Below are positions 8,084 to 23,606 of a stretch of DNA of 64,000 nt, piece by piece (the first letter of the stretch is position 1; every line of letters starts with the position of its first letter). Source of the stretch: an uncultured Acidimicrobiales bacterium (lineage in GTDB: Bacteria > Actinomycetota > Acidimicrobiia > Acidimicrobiales > SZUA-35); the NCBI GenBank assembly GCA_937958015.1, contig CALGOA010000185.1, positions 938-64,937 on the forward strand, written 5' to 3'. Under the pieces are notes generated by a model, which saw only the letters and a list, made by a program, of their open reading frames with translations, was not told the DNA's origin and ran no database searches. Made by a program: the position numbers and the translations under genes.

Positions 8084-8277
8084 CCGAGTCGCACTACTGT
8101 GGAGTTCCGGCGTCGAGTGGCGCCCAACCCCATGTGCGGCCCCGCCCGGCCCACGCCTCGGGGCAAAGGAGAGCCTGTCTCTTCCACTTCGATCGTTGTT
8201 GATGCCATTTCATTTTCCTGGCTGAGACTCGTGGGTGGGGGCGGACGCGTCGGGTCGTCGGCCGGATGGAGAATGTC

Positions 8278-9885
8278 ATGACCACCCAACGCACCCTCAA
8301 GAAGCAGATCCGCGATCGCATGGGTCGAACCGGCGAGCGGTACACCACCGCCCGCAGCCACATCATCGGTTCGCAGAAACAACTCATGGTCGGCGGCCAA
8401 CAGGGCGACATCGCCGCAGTGAGGAATGCGCTCGCAGCTGCGGGCGTCGTCGGCCCCGATGGAACAGCCCTTACCGAAGCGCAGGTCTTTGGCCTGGCCG
8501 GTGGCATCGGGTTCCTCTACGGAGTGTTTCGCTACGACGGAGGACCGACGATGACGATCACCACCCGCAACACGTCGATGCCCGACACCTTCCTCGACCA
8601 ACTGTGGTCGACGGAGGGTCTCAGGTGTTCGGTCTCCACAACCGGAGGCGTGAAGAAAGCTCGCACCGACTTGGAGACCGCAGTCGCCGATGGGCGTCGG
8701 GCCCTGTGTTCTGTGGGAGCCGGCCGCCTCGGCTACCTCGGCCTCCCCGAGGAAGAAGCTGCCATGTATCCGATCGTCGTCGGGGTGATCTCTCACGATG
8801 GCGGTGACTACCTCATCGATGACCGGTCGCCGGTCCCCCACCGAATCGATGCCGAACAATTCGCAGCGGCGCGAGCGGTAGTGCGATCGGCGAAACACCG
8901 GATGGTCACGATCGATGGCGGCGAACCGGACTGGGAGCAGGTGATTGTGAGCGCGGTCCGAAACGGCGCCGACCGATACAACACACCGCCGGTGAAACAG
9001 TTCGCCGCAAACATCGGCCTTGCTGGACTCGACAAGTGGCGCCGACTCCTGACCGACTCCAGGGATCGCATGTCCTGGTCAAAGGTCTTTCCGGAAGGGC
9101 CAGACGCCGGCCTGGGGTTCAGCAGATTGTTCGAGTGCGTCGAGCATGCGTACACAGCTGCAAATGCAGGCCGGCCCCTCTACGCCGAGTTCCTCCGGTG
9201 GGCTGCCGATGTCACTACCGAATCGAGGTATGCAGAGGCCGCCGAAGCCGCCGACGCATCGGGCGAGAGGTGGGCTGCGATAGCGGATCTGTCCTCGAGT
9301 GCGGATCCGGCGGTGCGCCGGGCCGCCGCCGCCATCGACAAACGAGCTGAGTTGCTGGACAACGGGGCCGATCCCGACAAACTTCTCACCGCCTATCGAG
9401 ATCAGGAAACGGCGGTTGAGGCATGCCGGATCTCGGCCAAGCACGCGGCAGCGACTCGGACCCAGATCGCAGAGGAGCTCTCCGAGATCATCGAACACGA
9501 AACGACGATGCTGGAGATCCTTGGGGCCGGTATCGACCGGCCGTCACCCCCGACCCGGAGTCGTCGACGGGAGAACGAGGCTGACCGAATCACGATGCAG
9601 AACCCCAACACCGGTCGCACCGACAACACGATGGACCGGAAGATGTACGACCCCGTGCGCACCGCGATTCTGCAGGCGCTCAACGATGTCGATGGCGTCC
9701 GCTTCTCCGACCTGCCTGCCGAGGTTGAGGCGAGAACTCCGGCGGCGATGTGGGCCTCGAGCAAGGTCGGTTGGTACACCACGTCGGTCAAATTGGATCT
9801 GGAGGCTCGCGGTCTGCTCGAACGGTTTGATTCTCCTCAGCGGCTCCGGCTGACCACCGCCGGGCGGAACGCCCTGTCGAACTGA
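8278..9885 (+). CDS. BtrH_N/DUF4872-like protein fused to a C-terminal winged-helix-like module
   Basis: The track ORF starts at 8266, but ATG 8278 has GGAG 6 nt upstream. The middle region resembles the DUF4872 family (FAANIGLAGLDKWRRLL...RPLYAEFLRWAA...ERWAAIADL). The last ~100 aa (MQNPNTGRTDNTMDRKMYDPVRTAILQAL...KVGWYTTSVKLDLEARGLLER) look like an independent small wHTH domain. Family assignment is from memory. Confidence 0.55.
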   Translation: MTTQRTLKKQIRDRMGRTGERYTTARSHIIGSQKQLMVGGQQGDIAAVRNALAAAGVVGPDGTALTEAQVFGLAGGIGFLYGVFRYDGGPTMTITTRNTSMPDTFLDQLWSTEGLRCSVSTTGGVKKARTDLETAVADGRRALCSVGAGRLGYLGLPEEEAAMYPIVVGVISHDGGDYLIDDRSPVPHRIDAEQFAAARAVVRSAKHRMVTIDGGEPDWEQVIVSAVRNGADRYNTPPVKQFAANIGLAGLDKWRRLLTDSRDRMSWSKVFPEGPDAGLGFSRLFECVEHAYTAANAGRPLYAEFLRWAADVTTESRYAEAAEAADASGERWAAIADLSSSADPAVRRAAAAIDKRAELLDNGADPDKLLTAYRDQETAVEACRISAKHAAATRTQIAEELSEIIEHETTMLEILGAGIDRPSPPTRSRRRENEADRITMQNPNTGRTDNTMDRKMYDPVRTAILQALNDVDGVRFSDLPAEVEARTPAAMWASSKVGWYTTSVKLDLEARGLLERFDSPQRLRLTTAGRNALSN

Positions 9886-9999
9886 GCGATCATGGTCTGG
9901 GCGGGCGAATGGCGCGCCGCCCGGACCGTCCCGCGGGGTCCGACCCACAAATCTCGAGAACAGGTGCAAGGAATCAACCCCGCCGCAAGTGGGGTAGGT

Positions 10000-10494
10000 G
10001 TGAAGGCTGACATCGAAGCGATCGAGCTTCTCGTCGATGAACCGGACAGCATCGATTTTGCGACGTTCTATTCACAGGAACACGAGGGACAGGTTCGGCG
10101 AGCGTTTCTGCTCCTAGGCACATCATCCGCCGCCCACGACGCTGTTGCAGAGGCGTTCGAAGAGGTGTTTCGCCGGTGGGACCAGATTCGAGACCCCGGC
10201 CCCTACCTGAACGTCGTCGTGATCAACTCGTGCCGGGACGCCGCCAAACGACGCGGACGGGAAACGCCGACCGATCGATTTCCCGACTGTGGACATGATG
10301 ATCGAGCCGATCACATGGCCGACTGCCTGATGGGACTTCCGTTTCGGCAGCGGGCGGCGGTCGTCTTGCGGTACTACGGCGGCGAATCCGAAGCATCGAT
10401 CGCCGAATATCTGGACTGCCGCCCGGGCACCGTCGGCTCCCTCATCCATCGCGGCCTGAAGGCCCTACGCCTGCAATTGAAGGAATTGGAATGA
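10000..10494 (+). CDS. ECF-type RNA polymerase sigma-70 family factor
   Basis: Region 2 (AHDAVAEAFEEVFRRWDQIRDPGPYLNVVVINSCRDAAKRR) and region 4 (LPFRQRAAVVLRYYGGESEASIAEYLDCRPGTVGSLIHRGLKALR) are present. The track ORF begins at 9892; GTG 10000 gives a typical ECF length. The start is uncertain. Confidence 0.8.
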   Translation: MKADIEAIELLVDEPDSIDFATFYSQEHEGQVRRAFLLLGTSSAAHDAVAEAFEEVFRRWDQIRDPGPYLNVVVINSCRDAAKRRGRETPTDRFPDCGHDDRADHMADCLMGLPFRQRAAVVLRYYGGESEASIAEYLDCRPGTVGSLIHRGLKALRLQLKELE

Positions 10495-12104
10495 TCGAAC
10501 TCCTACCTGACGAATTTGAACAGGAACTGGCCGAACTGATGAACGAGCGCGCCAGTCGACTCCGAGTCGAGTCCTCACCTGTTCGAGAAACGGCTCACAC
10601 GAACAGCCCGTCACGGCGACCCTGGATTTTGGCGGCCGCAGCAGTCCTGCTGATCGTGTTGGGTCTGGCCGGTCTCAACCGCTGGTCTGAGCGCGACGAT
10701 TCTCGATTCGTTGACTCTGCAGCGTCATCAGCGCTCGAGACGGAGTTGGTGATCTGGATTGAACAGTCAGCGACGCCGGGTGAGATTGACGAGGTTGCGG
10801 CAACGCTCGAGAGCCTCTCCAGCGTCGTTCGCTTCACCTATGTCGACAGGTCTCAGACCTTCGCCGAGTTCGAGGAGTACTTCGCTGAGTCCCCCGAGGT
10901 TCTTCTGGCGGTCGAACCTGAGGACCTACCCGTCTCGTTTCGTGTCGAGACGAACGATCCGAAGGCTGTGACAGACGCCGTGCAGGATCTCGCTGGCGTC
11001 CGGCAGGTTGATATCGGGTCCGACCAGACCTCAGATCCCGGATGGCTCTTCCCGGCTGCGGCATTGGAATCGGTGGTGATGATCGATCCGGATGTCTCGC
11101 TTGCGTACCTACAGAGGGTTCATGCTGCAGTCGAAGAGTTGAGCTCGACCCGCTCGGCGTATCCGGTCAGCACGGCCCGAAGCCTGGAAAAGTTCGCTGA
11201 GTTCTTCGACGACTATCCAGCGCTGCGCACACAGATCGAAGACGCTGACCTGCGGCCCTCGGTACGGGTAGTTACCGAGGACATCGTCGAACTTCGTCGA
11301 ACCGTCGATGGAATGCCTGGGGTTCTCTTCGTCACTGGATCGTCCGTGCCAGCGGACCCCGATCCAATCTTCCTTTTGCCGGCGAACGACATCGCAGCCG
11401 CAGCGACCGTCGAATCGGCGTTCGGCCCGGAAACTCCCAACGTTGACGCCGGGCAGGCGCTCTTACTTGCGAGCGACACCAGTCAAGACCTCTCCGTGGT
11501 CCGTCAGATCGATGCTCCGAGCTTCTCAGATCCAGTCTTTCTAACCCATTCCGTTGGGGACCGCATGGTCGCTCGGGACGTGATACGAGACGGTCGCCGG
11601 CAGGCTGCCGAACCGCTCGCAGACGGAACGTGGCTGCAGTACCTCAGCCCGGTCGCCGAACTCGATGACCTGATCGCTTCGACGCGATTCACCAATGGGA
11701 GGATCATCGTCGACAACCCGGCCTTTGCGGAGAGGTCACGCATTGACGACATCTCCGGTGGCGCTTCAACCTGGCTGACGCTGGACGAGTTCTCCGGTGA
11801 CCGACTGTTCATCCGAATGTTGGCCCACGGCACGATCCGGAGCGAAGAATTCTGGACGCTGGCTGAAACGGGCAGGCCGCCGGAGTCTGAGTTTCGGGTC
11901 AACGGACTGCCGACGTGGACCGGTTCAGTAGTTGAAGTCGATGAAGATGTGACCTGGACATCGGTTGGTTGGTATCCCGACGAGGGTCGGTGGGTCTCGG
12001 TTTCGGGGTCACGAAGCCTCGAGGAACTCGTTGAGATCGCCGAGGGTCTGCAGGAAGTTGACGAGGCAACATGGCGAGCGTGGGTTGACGATCGTTCCGA
12101 CTAG
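10491..12104 (+). CDS. single-pass membrane protein, putative anti-sigma factor with two FtsX-ECD-like repeats and a DUF4367-like C-terminus
   Basis: ATGA overlap with the sigma gene. It has a short cytoplasmic N-terminus, one TM segment (WILAAAAVLLIVLGLAGL), and two alpha/beta modules resembling the FtsX extracellular domain (VIWIEQSATPGEIDEVAATLESLSSVVRFTYVDRSQTFAEF... and VMIDPDVSLAYLQRVHAAVEELSS...). The C-terminal end is VTWTSVGWYPDEGRWVSVSGSRSLEELVEIAEGL. Confidence 0.6.
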   Translation: MIELLPDEFEQELAELMNERASRLRVESSPVRETAHTNSPSRRPWILAAAAVLLIVLGLAGLNRWSERDDSRFVDSAASSALETELVIWIEQSATPGEIDEVAATLESLSSVVRFTYVDRSQTFAEFEEYFAESPEVLLAVEPEDLPVSFRVETNDPKAVTDAVQDLAGVRQVDIGSDQTSDPGWLFPAAALESVVMIDPDVSLAYLQRVHAAVEELSSTRSAYPVSTARSLEKFAEFFDDYPALRTQIEDADLRPSVRVVTEDIVELRRTVDGMPGVLFVTGSSVPADPDPIFLLPANDIAAAATVESAFGPETPNVDAGQALLLASDTSQDLSVVRQIDAPSFSDPVFLTHSVGDRMVARDVIRDGRRQAAEPLADGTWLQYLSPVAELDDLIASTRFTNGRIIVDNPAFAERSRIDDISGGASTWLTLDEFSGDRLFIRMLAHGTIRSEEFWTLAETGRPPESEFRVNGLPTWTGSVVEVDEDVTWTSVGWYPDEGRWVSVSGSRSLEELVEIAEGLQEVDEATWRAWVDDRSD

Positions 12105-12187
12105 TAGCTGCAGAGTCCGATTCGAAGACGAGGGCACGAAACGATTCGGATTCGGTTCCGACATGCTGGCGGAGCTACGTTGACGCC

Positions 12188-12670
12188 GTGACTCCACATC
12201 TTGTGACAGGTGACCAACTCCCGCCGCTGATGGCAAAAGATCTCGACGGCAACGAGGTCGACATGACCGCCAGCGTGGCCGGCAACTGGGCCGTGATCAT
12301 GTACTACCGAGGCGATTGGTGACCCTACTGCCGTCAACAGTTGGTTGACTTCGCCGTCCACGGACTCCCGCTCATGAGTCTGGGGGTCAAGGTTGTTGCC
12401 GCCTCGGTCGATTCTGTCGAGTCGGTGGCCAAACTCCGAGAGGGTCTGCACGTCGGGTACCCGATGTATGCCGAGGTCGACGCAGCTGCGCTGGCCGAGG
12501 CCACCGGAGCGTCGGTGCACATCGGTGAGGACCGGACGTTTACCCATGCCACGGCCTTCCTCGTCAACCCCGAGGGGATCATCTCAAATGCGGTGTACTC
12601 GACCGGACCGATCGGCCGATTCACCGCCAGCGAGATCATCCGCAAGACGATGTTCGAACAACGTAAGTAG
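12188..12670 (+). CDS. redoxin / AhpC-TSA (PRX_like) thioredoxin-fold protein with in-frame TGA at the active-site Cys position (candidate selenoprotein, otherwise a pseudogene)
   Basis: One frame reads VTPHLVTGDQLPPLMAKDLDGNEVDMTASVAGNWAVIMYYRGDW-TGA(12320-12322)-PYCRQQLVDFAVHGL...NPEGIISNAVYS.... The family motif is W-C-P-x-C. The track reports only the C-terminal 109 aa (12341-12670). Confidence 0.6.
12320..12349 (+). other. UGA codon plus downstream stem-loop (candidate bacterial SECIS element)
   Basis: A perfect 6-bp stem GUCAAC (12333-12338) / GUUGAC (12344-12349) closes the loop AGUUG. The stem starts 11 nt after the UGA, and the loop contains GU. Confidence 0.45.
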
Positions 12671-12791: not shown

Positions 12792-13364
12792 CTACAGGTC
12801 CTTAACCATCAGGATCCACTCGCCCGGTTGATCAGACCCCGGGAAGGGAGCGAAGGGCCGCCTCTGCCACTCCCGAAAGCCGAGACTCAGGTAGAGCCGA
12901 TGTGCGCCAGCGTTGAAACTGCCGACGAGCAGCGTCACACGTTCCACCCCTGCCTTGCGTGCTTTACGGTCTGCCAGAGCAAACAACTCGTGTCCCACGC
13001 CCTGGCCCCGGAACTCGGGGTGCACGGACGCAACCGAGACGTACCAGGTCCCCACCGCCAGCGCCTTCAGTTCGTTCAATGGTTGGAGCACCGCCGCCGT
13101 GCGCTCGGTGGGCTCGGGCATCGGGGGAAGCACATAGCTGTTCAGAGCCCCGGCCACTCTCTGTTCGACCTCGACGACCGCCCACTTCGACAGGTGCGTG
13201 AGTGCGTCGCCATTGTCGAGAATGCCGGACCGACCAACTTCGAAGCTCGACTGTCCCTCCTGGGCATGTTCCTCCCACAGCCAGGAGACCAAGCGGCGGG
13301 TTGCCGCATCGGCAAGGATCGCCAGGTCGGAACTGTCGCCGCCGACCGCGTCCCGAACCGTCAT
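12792..13364 (-). CDS. GNAT family N-acetyltransferase
   Basis: Acetyl-CoA binding motif VHPEFRGQGVGHELFALADRKARKAGVERVTLLV...NAGAHRLYLSLGF. The track ORF extends to 13409; ATG 13364 (MTVRDAVGG) is the preferred start. Confidence 0.8.
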   Translation of the reverse strand: MTVRDAVGGDSSDLAILADAATRRLVSWLWEEHAQEGQSSFEVGRSGILDNGDALTHLSKWAVVEVEQRVAGALNSYVLPPMPEPTERTAAVLQPLNELKALAVGTWYVSVASVHPEFRGQGVGHELFALADRKARKAGVERVTLLVGSFNAGAHRLYLSLGFREWQRRPFAPFPGSDQPGEWILMVKDL

Positions 13365-13562
13365 GTCTGGTATCACCCTGCTGTCAGCCACGACAAGAGC
13401 ATGCGCCACGACGCACGTTTATGCCAGCGATTGAAGCGGAGAAATTCGCCGCGACCGGAGGTGGCTTCTCGGCGTCAGAACACTACGCCCACTCGGCCGC
13501 ACGGCGTCACTGTTGACGGCGGCGGCTGCGGCCGATGTGGGTGGGTTAAGCCTGCCGAGCGA

Positions 13563-14318
13563 CTAGCCGGACATGTAGTTGCTGGTGGCACCGCCGTCCA
13601 GCACGATGGTCTGGCCGGTCACCCAACCCGACGCCTCCGAGCAGAGGTACATGGCCGCATTGGAGATGTCCTCAACTTCGCCGAGTCGTTTCAGTGGGTA
13701 GGCCTTGGCGGCCTGCTCGCCTCGTTCGCCCTCCCAGAGAAGGCGGGCGAAGTCGGTCTTGATCAGGCCCGGAGCGACCGCATTCACGCGTACGCGCGGA
13801 GCGAGTTCGGCCGCTAGTTGTTTCGTGGTGTGGATCAGCGCTGACTTGGTCATGTTGTAGACCGCAAGCTCTGCGCTGGTACCCAGTCCGCCGACCGAGG
13901 CGACATTGAGAATGGCTCCGCCGTTTTCTTTCATCGATGCGTTCCATGCCGCCTGCGCCCACAGGACGGGGGCGGTGAGGTTTACCTGGATCGTCTTGTT
14001 CCAGCGCCCGAGGTCAGCCTCGATCATGGGTCCCACGTAGGGATTGGTCGCAGCGTTGTTCACAAGGATGTCGACTCCACCAAACTGCTCGACGGTTGAC
14101 GCAACGACGGCCTCGGCCGACTCGGGTTCGCCGACGTTGCCCGGCATCCAGACACAGGCTCCCCCGATCTCACCCGCCGCTTCTTCGAGCTGCTCGGCTT
14201 TGCGGCTGGTGATCATGACGTTGGCGCCAGCGTTCGAGAACGCCGTGGCGATCGCTTTGCCGATTCCCCGGGAACCCCCGGTCACAATCGCAGTCTTTCC
14301 GTCCAGACGAATCTCCAT
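13563..14318 (-). CDS. SDR family oxidoreductase
   Basis: 251-aa ORF with TGGSRGIGKAIA, NNAA and the YNMTKSAL (YxxxK) catalytic motif. Confidence 0.9.
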   Translation of the reverse strand: MEIRLDGKTAIVTGGSRGIGKAIATAFSNAGANVMITSRKAEQLEEAAGEIGGACVWMPGNVGEPESAEAVVASTVEQFGGVDILVNNAATNPYVGPMIEADLGRWNKTIQVNLTAPVLWAQAAWNASMKENGGAILNVASVGGLGTSAELAVYNMTKSALIHTTKQLAAELAPRVRVNAVAPGLIKTDFARLLWEGERGEQAAKAYPLKRLGEVEDISNAAMYLCSEASGWVTGQTIVLDGGATSNYMSG

Positions 14319-20477: not shown

Positions 20478-20646
20478 CTCGTCGTGCCTCCTGCCAACAC
20501 GAGACTAGGACTGCGGCCGAACCGTGTCACTTGGCCGACTGATGCGAATGCATCCCCTCGTTTGACGCGTGAGCCAGTGTCCACGGTTGAACACACCGAT
20601 CTACGGTCGCTCCAAACAGATCGAAAACCACACAAAGGGGAATCGA

Positions 20647-21423
20647 ATGGGAAGAGTAGATGGCAAGGTCGCCCTGATCACCGGAGGCGCCAGGGGTCTG
20701 GGCGAAGCGAACGGACGCCTGATGGCCGACGAAGGCGCAACGGTTGTGCTGAGCGACGTTCTCGATGACGACGGAAAAGCGACCGCCGACTCGATCGTCG
20801 CATCTGGAGGTTCCGCCGAGTACATCCACCAGGACGTGACCGACGAGGACACCTGGGATGAGGTCGTCAAGGGAATCGTCTCGCGACATGGCCGGCTGGA
20901 CATCGTCGTGAACAACGCTGGTGTCGCTCTCGACAAGACGGTCGAAGACACCACACTTGAGGAATTCCGGTGGGTGAATGCGATCAACAACGAGGCGGTC
21001 TTTCTGGGCACCCGCGCCGCCATCAGGGCGATGAAGAACCAGAACCCGAAGGGCGGATCGATAGTCAACATCTCCTCGATCGCTGGCCTTGTCGGCATCG
21101 AAAACCTCGCCGCATATAACGCGTCGAAGGGCGCGGTCCGACTCTTCAGCAAGTCGGCTGCGCTTCACTGCGCTAGTAACGGTTACAACATTCGAGTCAA
21201 CACCGTGCATCCGAGCTACACGTGGACCCCGATGGTTCAGGCCATCGGCGACAACACCGGGGACCGCGATGCCTTCTTCGAGGCACTCAGTGAGGCCCAC
21301 CCGCTCGGGCGCCCTGGTGTTCCGATGGACGTCGCCTACGGGGTTCTCTATCTCTCCTCGGACGAGTCCACATGGGTCACAGGATCCGAGTTGGTGATCG
21401 ACGGCGGCATTACTGCTGTTTGA
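20647..21423 (+). CDS. SDR family oxidoreductase
   Basis: ATG 20647 is preceded by AAGGGGA. Motifs: GKVALITGGARGLGEA, NNAG, YNASKGAV. Confidence 0.9.
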   Translation: MGRVDGKVALITGGARGLGEANGRLMADEGATVVLSDVLDDDGKATADSIVASGGSAEYIHQDVTDEDTWDEVVKGIVSRHGRLDIVVNNAGVALDKTVEDTTLEEFRWVNAINNEAVFLGTRAAIRAMKNQNPKGGSIVNISSIAGLVGIENLAAYNASKGAVRLFSKSAALHCASNGYNIRVNTVHPSYTWTPMVQAIGDNTGDRDAFFEALSEAHPLGRPGVPMDVAYGVLYLSSDESTWVTGSELVIDGGITAV

Positions 21424-21468
21424 TCCAGGCGTCGGAGATCGGCCCAATTCGATGATGCCCGGAACGTC

Positions 21469-23010
21469 GTGAATCCCGCAATCTGGGTGGAGCGACAGGG
21501 TTTGCTCCGACCCGACCAACCAGCGCTGGCCGACGGCGAACGGGTCCACGCTGACTGGGCCACGTTCGCCGACAGGGCAGCTCGGGCCGCGACCGGCTTG
21601 ACCGCCAACATGGGAGTGTTGCCGGGTGAGCGCGTCGCCATTGTGATGAACAATCGCCCCGAGTATCTCGAGGCGTTGTACGCCATCTGGCACGCCGGTC
21701 TGGTGGCGGTGCCGGTCAACGCCCGCCTGCACCGGGACGAGATCGGATACATCCTCGACCACAGCGGCACGAGGGTCGTCGTGACCGATGAGGCCCATGC
21801 GGCCGACGTCGAGTCGTTGATCGGCACGGCAGGCCGACTCGAGTCGGTCATAGTGACGCCGGGCCAAGGGTGGGACCGGCTCACGGCGGCATCGCAGCGC
21901 CGGGTCTTCGGGTGCGGTCCCGAAGACCCGGCCTGGCTGTTCTACACCAGCGGCACTACCGGACAACCAAAGGGGGCGACGCTGACGCATCGCAATCTGA
22001 TGATGATGACGCTCAGCTACTTCGCCGACATCGATCAGGTGATGCCGCAGGATTCGATTCTTCACGCCGCACCGCTTTCACACGGTTCGGGCATGTACGG
22101 GTTACCCCACGTCGCACGAGGCGCAGTCAGTGTCCTGCCGGCATCGGGCGGTGTTGAAGGAGAGGAGATCGCCGGCCTTCTGAATCGCTGGCCCGGGATG
22201 TCTTTCTTCACGGCACCGGTGATGGTCAACCGCCTAGCAACCGACCCCTCGATGGCCCAGATCGATCGCTCGCATCTGAAGACGATCATCTACGGGGGAG
22301 CTCCGATGTATCTGGCAGATCTCAGAATCGCGTTGGATACGTTCGGTCCCCGGCTCGCACAAATCTATGGACAGGGCGAATCACCGATGACGATTACCAC
22401 CCTTTCGAAGGCGGATCACGCCGCGAGGGATGGCAGCCGGTGGCTGGAGCGAGTCCAGAGCGTCGGCACCGCTTTTACCGATGTGGAGGTGCAGGTCGTG
22501 GATGACGACGATCGTCCGCTACCGGCAGAGGAGGTCGGGGAGATCGTCGTACGCGGTGATGTCGTCATGGCTGGCTACTGGAACCAGCCTGATGCCAATG
22601 CGGAGACTCTGCGGAACGGCTGGTTGCATACCGGCGACGTCGGAAGTTTTGACTCGGACGGGTTTCTCACGCTTCGGGACCGTTCCAAGGACCTCATCAT
22701 CAGCGGCGGGATGAACATCTACCCGCGCGAAGTTGAGGAGACTCTGCTCCGCCATGCGGCTGTTGCGGCAGCGTCAGTCGTCGGTCGTCCGGACCCCGAG
22801 TGGGGCGAGGCCGTGGTTGCCTTCGTGGTTCCGATGGACGGTTCCGCGACACCCCCGATCGAAGAACTCGACCAACTTTGCCTCGACCACATCGCCCGGT
22901 ACAAACGCCCCAAGGAGTACCGATTCCTGAGCTCGCTGCCGACGAACAACTATGGCAAGGTCCTGAAGCGTGAACTTCGAGCCCAACTTCACCCGCCTGC
23001 GGGCCCATGA
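21469..23010 (+). CDS. AMP-dependent acyl-CoA synthetase/ligase (FadD-like)
   Basis: 513-aa ORF with the AMP-binding motif FYTSGTTGQPKGATLTH, plus GWLHTGDVG and GGMNIYPREVE. Confidence 0.9.
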   Translation: MNPAIWVERQGLLRPDQPALADGERVHADWATFADRAARAATGLTANMGVLPGERVAIVMNNRPEYLEALYAIWHAGLVAVPVNARLHRDEIGYILDHSGTRVVVTDEAHAADVESLIGTAGRLESVIVTPGQGWDRLTAASQRRVFGCGPEDPAWLFYTSGTTGQPKGATLTHRNLMMMTLSYFADIDQVMPQDSILHAAPLSHGSGMYGLPHVARGAVSVLPASGGVEGEEIAGLLNRWPGMSFFTAPVMVNRLATDPSMAQIDRSHLKTIIYGGAPMYLADLRIALDTFGPRLAQIYGQGESPMTITTLSKADHAARDGSRWLERVQSVGTAFTDVEVQVVDDDDRPLPAEEVGEIVVRGDVVMAGYWNQPDANAETLRNGWLHTGDVGSFDSDGFLTLRDRSKDLIISGGMNIYPREVEETLLRHAAVAAASVVGRPDPEWGEAVVAFVVPMDGSATPPIEELDQLCLDHIARYKRPKEYRFLSSLPTNNYGKVLKRELRAQLHPPAGP

Positions 23011-23419: not shown

Positions 23420-23532
23420 ACGGTGAGAGTCCGCTTCGCCTCGGAACCCTTCTTCATGATGGCAACTACATCGATGGACTTCTACCCCGTGGAAACACCG
23501 TGAGATGTAGTCTCCATCAGGAATTTGGTGAG

Positions 23533-23606
23533 CGCCCACGCGAGGACTTGAACCCCGAACCTACCGGGTAGAAACCGGTTGCTCTATCCAATTGAGCTAC
23601 GTGGGC
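23533..23606 (-). tRNA. tRNA-Arg (anticodon UCU)
   Basis: The reverse complement folds as a cloverleaf: acceptor GCCCACG/CGTGGGC, D arm GCTC..GAGC, anticodon stem ACCGG/CCGGT with loop TTTCTAC, T arm CGGGG-TTCAAGT-CCTCG. CCA is not encoded. Confidence 0.9.

Follow-up and report, generated by a model that had tools for sequence, protein, structure and literature searches.

A probable Prx-like selenoprotein gene with an in-frame TGA codon and a candidate SECIS hairpin in an Acidimicrobiales contig

The window analysed here, a 64-kb stretch of a metagenome-assembled contig, contains a redoxin reading frame interrupted by a single internal stop codon (Table 1). The frame opens with a GTG that aligns with the ATG of the four closest related loci (L001-L004). 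Its only internal stop is a TGA in the context G-D-W-(TGA)-P-Y-C, with the codons CCC TAC TGC following it. The initial annotation had proposed a candidate selenoprotein gene on the basis of this frame, its one TGA, the W-U-P-Y-C motif and an adjacent stem-loop, and all of these elements proved exact to the base. A search of the region around the gene detected neither promoter-like nor terminator-like sites.

Table 1. Positions of the redoxin gene, its sequence elements and neighbouring genes in the window.
Feature	Position	Strand	Remarks
DUF6958/BtrH_N gene	8266-9885		
ECF-type sigma factor and FtsX_ECD-domain protein	9892-12104		
GGAG, possible ribosome-binding site, from sequence	12171..12174	+	13 nt 5' of GTG
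Prx-like (AhpC/TSA-fold) thiol:disulfide oxidoreductase CDS	12188..12670	+	160 codons + stop; start GTG 12188, stop TAG 12668-12670; predicted Sec at codon 45
TGA, putative selenocysteine codon U45	12320..12322	+	First residue of the U-P-Y-C redox motif
TGC, Cys48	12329..12331	+	Resolving Cys of UxxC
Bacterial SECIS-type hairpin (candidate)	12333..12349	+	Inside codons R49-Q-Q-L-V-D54
Hairpin, first stem strand GUCAAC	12333-12338	+	
Hairpin, loop AGUUG	12339-12343	+	
Hairpin, second stem strand GUUGAC	12344-12349	+	
GNAT acetyltransferase	12792-13409	-	
SDR gene	13563-14318	-	Opposite-strand neighbour

The neighbours of the gene are a DUF6958/BtrH_N protein, an ECF-type sigma factor and an FtsX_ECD-domain protein, together with opposite-strand genes for a GNAT protein, an SDR, two glyoxalase-family proteins and a luciferase-like monooxygenase. 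None of them gives a functional link. No conserved operon partner was found in the 80 related loci described below, and synteny was detected only with L001-L004. In these four loci the DUF6958/BtrH_N and SDR genes flank the redoxin gene much more closely than in the window. None of the 80 loci contained a match to the genes at 9892-12104 or to the GNAT gene, which look like lineage-specific insertions.

Two tRNA genes recur downstream of the locus or its relatives. A tRNA-Arg(TCT) at 23532-23606 on the minus strand, about 11 kb downstream of the redoxin gene, lies about 2-5 kb downstream in three of the closest relatives (L002:5753-5827, L003:11430-11504 and L004:9120-9194); it looks syntenic, with variable content between. 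In the Nitrospinota/'bacterium' clade, a 92-nt tRNA-Ser(CGA) was found about 4-5 kb downstream at a conserved distance (L059, L060, L062, L066, L067, L069, L071-L073, L075, L076 and L079). This tRNA-Ser is not a tRNA-Sec, its anticodon being CGA and not UCA.

The program-made ORF list represents the redoxin locus only as two halves of 44 and 109 aa. The public record for the source locus is a 98-aa call, and orthologues are deposited as 103-111 aa entries named 'hypothetical protein', 'redoxin domain-containing protein' or 'alkyl hydroperoxide reductase subunit AhpC'. The expectation that a gene caller would report only the C-terminal part was borne out, the public calls being C-terminal fragments of about 100-110 aa. 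Searching with the protein gave 131 relatives, of which 120 were listed; about 115 of these were approximately 95-112 aa long and covered 55-68% of the query. As these short database homologues cover only the part after the TGA, they begin just 3' of the TGA column. The only full-length matches among the listed homologues were three distant proteins with 38-42% identity.

In a Pfam profile search with Cys put in at the TGA codon, the AhpC-TSA family (PF00578) matched residues 8-133 (E = 1.9e-20; 73.5 bits against a cut-off of 26), and the Redoxin family matched the same frame with E = 5e-12. Given the extent of the AhpC-TSA match, one domain runs across the TGA. This bears on a reading in which the locus yields two products, namely a 44-aa peptide terminated by the TGA and a separate 109-aa protein starting from TTG 12341. 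Both ORFs exist mechanically and public records call the downstream part alone; however, not only the Pfam domain but also a single predicted fold spans the junction, and the U-P-Y-C redox motif straddles it. Moreover, the supposed second start region is the conserved hairpin itself, and the truncated homologues have no constant called start: the close ones listed range from 91 to 112 aa and begin with M, with L or at an internal position. We regard two separate products as extremely unlikely.

Conservation of the interrupted frame was examined by scanning one genome per GTDB species, which yielded 165 related stretches; the best 80 of the 165, from 80 distinct genomes, were analysed. The tblastn matches in these genomes cover query residues 1-160, and the N-terminal part 5' of the TGA is conserved in all 80 species-level genomes. 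Most are Acidimicrobiales/Acidimicrobiia MAGs; the others belong to Gaiellaceae, Gemmatimonadota, Burkholderiales, Syntrophaceae/Smithella, Nitrospinota and Tectomicrobia. The interrupting codon was TGA in 80/80 loci and TAA or TAG in none, and every locus was otherwise intact in frame, with no other stops or frameshifts. The occurrence of TGA at one column in 80 of 80 related genomes is far beyond chance. The initial annotation had suggested looking for other TGA-bearing orthologues and had named further disabling mutations as a sign of a plain pseudogene. The former were found in all 80 genomes and additionally behind the database protein P0110, in which an apparent W is really a TGA; no disabling mutation was found.

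The codon three positions after the TGA, which specifies Cys in the source gene, was TGC in 62, TGT in 15 and TGA in 3 of the 80 loci. The three TGA cases are Nitrospinaceae orthologues with a U-P-Y-U arrangement (W-TGA-P-Y-TGA at L057:1100-1111, L061:6121-6132 and L063:6121-6132), in which two UGAs lie nine nt apart; UxxU is among the motifs that reviews give for the Prx-like thiol:disulfide oxidoreductase selenoproteins (PMC9312934, PMC13188914).

Comparison of the source gene with its orthologues gave dN/dS values of 0.06-0.53 over the 42 codons 5' of the TGA and 0.11-0.30 over the part 3' of it, at dS values of about 0.5-2.7. Since dN/dS is below 1 on each side of the TGA, both halves of the redoxin are maintained as protein. 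These results weigh heavily on the reading of the locus as a plain pseudogene, that is, an ordinary CxxC redoxin in which TGC or TGT mutated to a nonsense TGA and which is now decaying. Such a mutation takes a single base change, the locus figures as a truncated protein in gene calls and public records, and the Sec machinery is absent from the 64-kb window. Against decay stand the presence of TGA in all 80 species-level genomes across several phyla, the lack of any other stop or frameshift, purifying selection on each side of the TGA and a covarying RNA-level constraint immediately 3' of it. The likelihood that the gene is a pseudogene is accordingly negligible. Even smaller, in our estimate, is that of a sequencing or assembly error at the TGA: single-base errors do occur in metagenome-assembled contigs such as the source, but the TGA is present in independent assemblies of 80 species and in three further contigs (L083-L085).

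The RNA-level constraint resides in a 6-bp hairpin that is separated from the UGA by 10 nt. The hairpin is the minimum free energy (MFE) structure of the segment from the UGA to +45, with an unexceptional folding energy (z = -1.06 for 81 nt and z = -0.04 for the 45 nt from UGA to +45). As thermodynamics alone is unexceptional, the significance of the hairpin comes only from comparison across relatives. The MFE structure of the 81-nt segment, a 16-bp stem pairing the UGA itself, was rejected in favour of the 6-bp hairpin, all of its covariation measures being no higher than those of shuffled alignments.

Codon use in the stretch encoding R-Q-Q-L-V-D was counted in the source gene and in L001-L049. 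Arg was encoded by CGT in 50/50 cases, the first Gln by CAA in 37/40, the second Gln by CAG in 50/50, Leu by TTG in 47/50, Val by GTT in 46/49 and Asp by GAC in 50/50. Outside this stretch, conserved Arg, Leu, Val and Gly positions of the gene had a codon entropy of 1-2 bits. Several of the frozen hairpin codons are AT-ending, although the sequence is 63% GC. The R-Q-Q-L-V-D stretch is dual-coding, with its synonymous positions frozen.

Covariation was assessed for the six stem pairs in an ungapped alignment of 81 sequences, using 500 shuffles and slid registers of the hairpin as controls. Paired cells made up 89%, compared with 78.5% in shuffles; 46 cells were changed on both sides, compared with 11.9; and the covariation score was 0.301, compared with 0.108. 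None of the 500 shuffles reached the observed value for any of the three measures. Slid registers scored 0.117 at most; this control keeps the relatedness of the sequences and therefore answers the concern that kin sequences might outscore shuffles without any structure. Compensatory pair types were found in four of the six pairs (for example, A-U 36, G-C 19 and G-U 4), the sets including A-U/G-C/G-U, G-C/A-U/U-A and U-A/G-C/C-G. The 81 sequences contain 23 distinct hairpin sequences, twelve of which (55 loci) keep 6/6 pairs. Variants with CAC (His) refold with a one-base bulge, and changes from GTT to GTC occur only where the base is bulged or where its partner went from A to G. The hairpin is thus kept in relatives through compensatory changes.

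The form GUCAxC-AGUUG-GxUGAC, encoding RQQL(V/A)D, is almost invariant and common to Actinomycetota, Gemmatimonadota, Burkholderiales and Syntrophales. The GUCAxC/GxUGAC hairpin is missing from divergent clades (L059, L060, L062, L065-L067, L071 and L075; L069, L072, L073, L076, L079 and L080). Nitrospinota carry a shifted CGCC-CAGAU-GGCG stem, followed further downstream by a conserved UCUCCC-GGGC-GGGAGA hairpin; the stretches compared in L059, L060, L062, L065-L067, L071 and L075 were +13..+30 and +31..+46 nt after the TGA. In the L069/L072 group only weak structure was detected at the hairpin site. The clades without the exact hairpin (some Nitrospinota, the L069/L072 group and L080) would have to use a different element.

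Rfam scans at the gathering threshold and at E <= 10 matched no SECIS family to the hairpin. According to a 2026 preprint on Actinomarina, the coverage of bacterial SECIS elements by Rfam is poor, which makes this negative result uninformative. In its position and in its small, G-containing apical loop, the hairpin agrees with bacterial SECIS elements as described in PMC1088965.

Two homologues serve as natural controls for the hairpin. As the initial annotation had anticipated for Cys-containing homologues, both carry Cys at the TGA column: P0090 has WCRFC (locus L086, codon TGC) and P0112 has WCPYC (locus L087, codon TGT). L086 encodes RQQLAD as CGC CAG CAG CTG GCT GAC, and L087 encodes RQQLVD as CGC CAA CAG TTG GTG GAC. 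The stem is broken in each, so that in these two sequences, on which the control rests, essentially the same peptide is specified by stem-breaking synonymous codons. The locus offers a clean example of a putative dual-coding bacterial SECIS with a built-in control, the Cys forms losing the hairpin via synonymous changes.

A third informative homologue is P0110, whose database sequence has a W at the Sec column (GHWWPYC). In three independent contigs (L083:717-1193, L084:452-928 and L085:49-525) the codon at this position is TGA, and the hairpin is intact (GUCGGC-AGUUA-GUCGAC). Translation of these genes under table 11 does not yield the deposited sequence, and the most likely origin of the W is gene calling under a code in which TGA = Trp. 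Gene calls of this kind can hide selenoproteins as apparent Trp variants.

The selenocysteine machinery was searched for near the gene. ARAGORN found no tRNA-Sec in either the 64-kb window or any of the 80 related loci. With E. coli SelA, SelB and SelD as tblastn queries, neither the window nor the approximately 6-kb flanks of the 80 loci gave a match to selA, selB or selD. The same 2026 preprint reports that all 84 complete genomes of Actinomarina (order Actinomarinales) encode selA, selC and selD together with a divergent selB; beyond it, the papers searched contain essentially nothing on selenocysteine in Acidimicrobiales. A crude, non-exhaustive GC3-filtered scan of in-frame TGAs in the window returned 49 candidates, with a redox-motif context only at 12320. 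Another TGA, at 21421-21423, was considered as the site of a second selenoprotein and rejected as the junction of two adjacent same-frame genes: ORF 20566-21423, by eye an SDR ending in VIDGGITAV before its stop, and ORF 21424-23010, by eye an AMP-dependent synthetase/ligase-like protein.

The absence of Sec machinery from the window and from the flanks of the 80 loci, together with the W in the P0110 entry, could be taken to favour recoding of the UGA to an amino acid other than selenocysteine, either by reassignment of the code (Trp or Gly) or by hairpin-stimulated near-cognate read-through (Trp or Cys). However, the P0110 W corresponds to TGA and is likely an artefact of the caller's genetic code. 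Reassignment also conflicts with the use of TGA as the commonest ordinary stop in the window, where it ends 17 of 35 long high-GC3 ORFs; on this ground the genetic code is not reassigned. In addition, non-TGA homologues have Cys at the column, which lies within a redox UxxC motif, the family has already been published as selenoproteins, and the hairpin fits the bacterial SECIS description cited above. Recoding to another amino acid therefore appears very unlikely. Taken together, the invariant TGA, purifying selection on both sides of it and the frozen and covarying hairpin support the selenoprotein reading of the initial annotation, and the frame is very probably, judging from comparative sequence data, a genuine Sec-encoding gene for a 160-residue Prx-like selenoprotein of about 17.5 kDa.

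In the HMMER alignment of the protein to AhpC (4ql7), GDWUPYCRQ stands opposite DFTFVCPTE. Sec45 falls in the Thr column of the peroxiredoxin T-x-x-C and Cys48 in the column of the peroxidatic Cys, while the Pro column is occupied by R42 and the column of the catalytic Arg ('ADRATF') by A121. Of the canonical P-x-x-x-T-x-x-C motif and catalytic Arg, only the peroxidatic Cys is kept. The placement of the TGA at the catalytic Cys position, proposed initially, consequently holds for CxxC-type relatives but not for true peroxiredoxins, in which this column is Thr.

Scores against family-specific models were far below their cut-offs: 42.8 against 272 for NCBIfam AhpC, 41.5 against 211 for PRK13189, 33.1 against 260 for NCBIfam PrxQ, 27.5 against 140 for BCP, 36.2 against 270 bits for PrxU (NF040737) and 17.9 against 120 bits for the SelL-related redox protein (NF040769). 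The ResA model matched weakly (20.5 bits against a cut-off of 170), and the ResA structure 3c71 was detectable by sequence (E = 5e-7).

The Cys homologue P0090 was modelled as a stand-in for the source protein and gave a pLDDT of 90.3. Foldseek placed this model in the peroxiredoxin fold, with TM values of 0.7-0.78 to 5epf, 3hjp, 1xvw and 1qmv (BCP/AhpE/Prx) at about 20% identity. The equivalent of U45 lies just before helix 50-61 of the model, and the +3 Cys lies in the first turn. The protein is a peroxiredoxin-fold scaffold with a thioredoxin-type U-x-x-C site and not a canonical peroxiredoxin site. It is probably cytoplasmic, as inspection of the N-terminus by eye revealed no hydrophobic segment, signal or membrane anchor.

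By analogy with the established bacterial pathway, a ribosome positioned at UGA 12320-12322 would hold the hairpin at 12333-12349 just outside the mRNA channel. SelB-GTP-Sec-tRNA(Sec) would bind the G/U-containing apical loop, assuming SelB dependence, and selenocysteine would be inserted instead of termination. In the product, U45 would sit at the N-terminus of the first active-site helix with C48 one turn in, a geometry of the thioredoxin/ResA-type CxxC. The Sec45 selenolate may attack an oxidised substrate, presumably a disulfide and possibly a hydroperoxide; Cys48 would then resolve the intermediate to give an intramolecular selenenylsulfide, which a thioredoxin-type reductant could recycle.

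The Prx-like clade occurs in no fewer than 49 species-level genomes (L001-L049), almost all of which carry an Acidimicrobiales or Acidimicrobiia label, and the present searches found only two non-TGA homologues, both distant (38-42% identity). The hairpin shared by Actinomycetota, Gemmatimonadota, Burkholderiales and Syntrophales could mark a portable cassette moved by horizontal transfer. Tentatively, and with slightly less than even confidence, we suggest that the clade is essentially obligately Sec-dependent, that Sec decoding is widespread and largely unreported in Acidimicrobiales, and that the gene and its SECIS spread horizontally as one cassette. If the clade is indeed Sec-dependent, selenocysteine decoding would be a widespread, largely unreported trait of Acidimicrobiales.

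For databases, the consequence is that a redox enzyme is stored publicly as a fragment of about 100-110 aa without its active site, sometimes mislabelled "AhpC". The truncated records concern the source genome and at least 80 species-level genomes (best 80 of 165 stretches). A corrected call restores the catalytic U-x-x-C site. It also marks the host organisms, many of them Acidimicrobiales, as probably using selenocysteine, with consequences for estimates of how far soil and aquatic communities depend on selenium.

Among known recoding elements, the E. coli fdhF/fdnG-type SECIS described by the Boeck laboratory is a hairpin in the coding region whose small apical loop includes both G and U. 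The candidate hairpin resembles it in lying within the coding region, in beginning about 11 nt after the UGA and in its G/U apical loop. It differs in being shorter (6 bp) and of other sequence, and no Rfam model covers it.

With AhpC/Prx1, BCP/PrxQ and AhpE the protein shares the overall fold (TM 0.7-0.78 for the P0090 model), the Pfam family and Cys48 in the peroxidatic column; in contrast to canonical peroxiredoxins, it has R42, U45 and A121 in place of their Pro, Thr and Arg. PrxU (TxxU) carries its Sec at the peroxidatic-Cys column; here Sec lies three residues upstream of that column, opposite the Thr. In ResA/TlpA CxxC oxidoreductases, the active-site helix likewise has a W-C-x-x-C-type motif at its N-terminus. 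Unlike in those proteins, Sec here replaces the N-terminal Cys, no signal or anchor is visible and the ResA score is weak.

The closest correspondence is with the Prx-like thiol:disulfide oxidoreductase selenoproteins, a family reportedly described by Kryukov and Gladyshev in 2004. The family is defined by pfam00578 and UxxC/UxxU (PMC9312934, PMC13188914), and prior work on it includes Zhang et al. 2005 (PMC1088965) and Zhang and Gladyshev 2008 (PMC2398784). The latter, the GOS study, listed 'Prx-like 1, pfam00578, UxxC' with 225 selenoprotein sequences, and its supplementary reads include ...FYRGHWUPYCRRQLV...KVFAASVD...SSYSSGPLGR (PMC2398784). The source protein showed 34% identity over 127 aa (E = 1e-23) to the GOS 'Prx-like 1' read JCVI_READ_286511, and shares with the GOS member the motifs FYRG(D/H)WUPYCR, AASVD and YSxGP(I/L)GR. 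It has the features of the family: a pfam00578 domain, a UGA at the first position of a thioredoxin-like U-x-x-C (UxxU in some members of the family) opposite Cys in homologues, and a downstream SECIS-type hairpin. Nothing categorical sets it apart; it represents an Acidimicrobiales orthologue group with 34% identity to the one GOS read compared. The gene belongs to this known family, Prx-like thiol:disulfide oxidoreductase or 'Prx-like 1' selenoproteins (pfam00578, UxxC/UxxU), and is a mis-annotated further member of it, involving no new family or mechanism.
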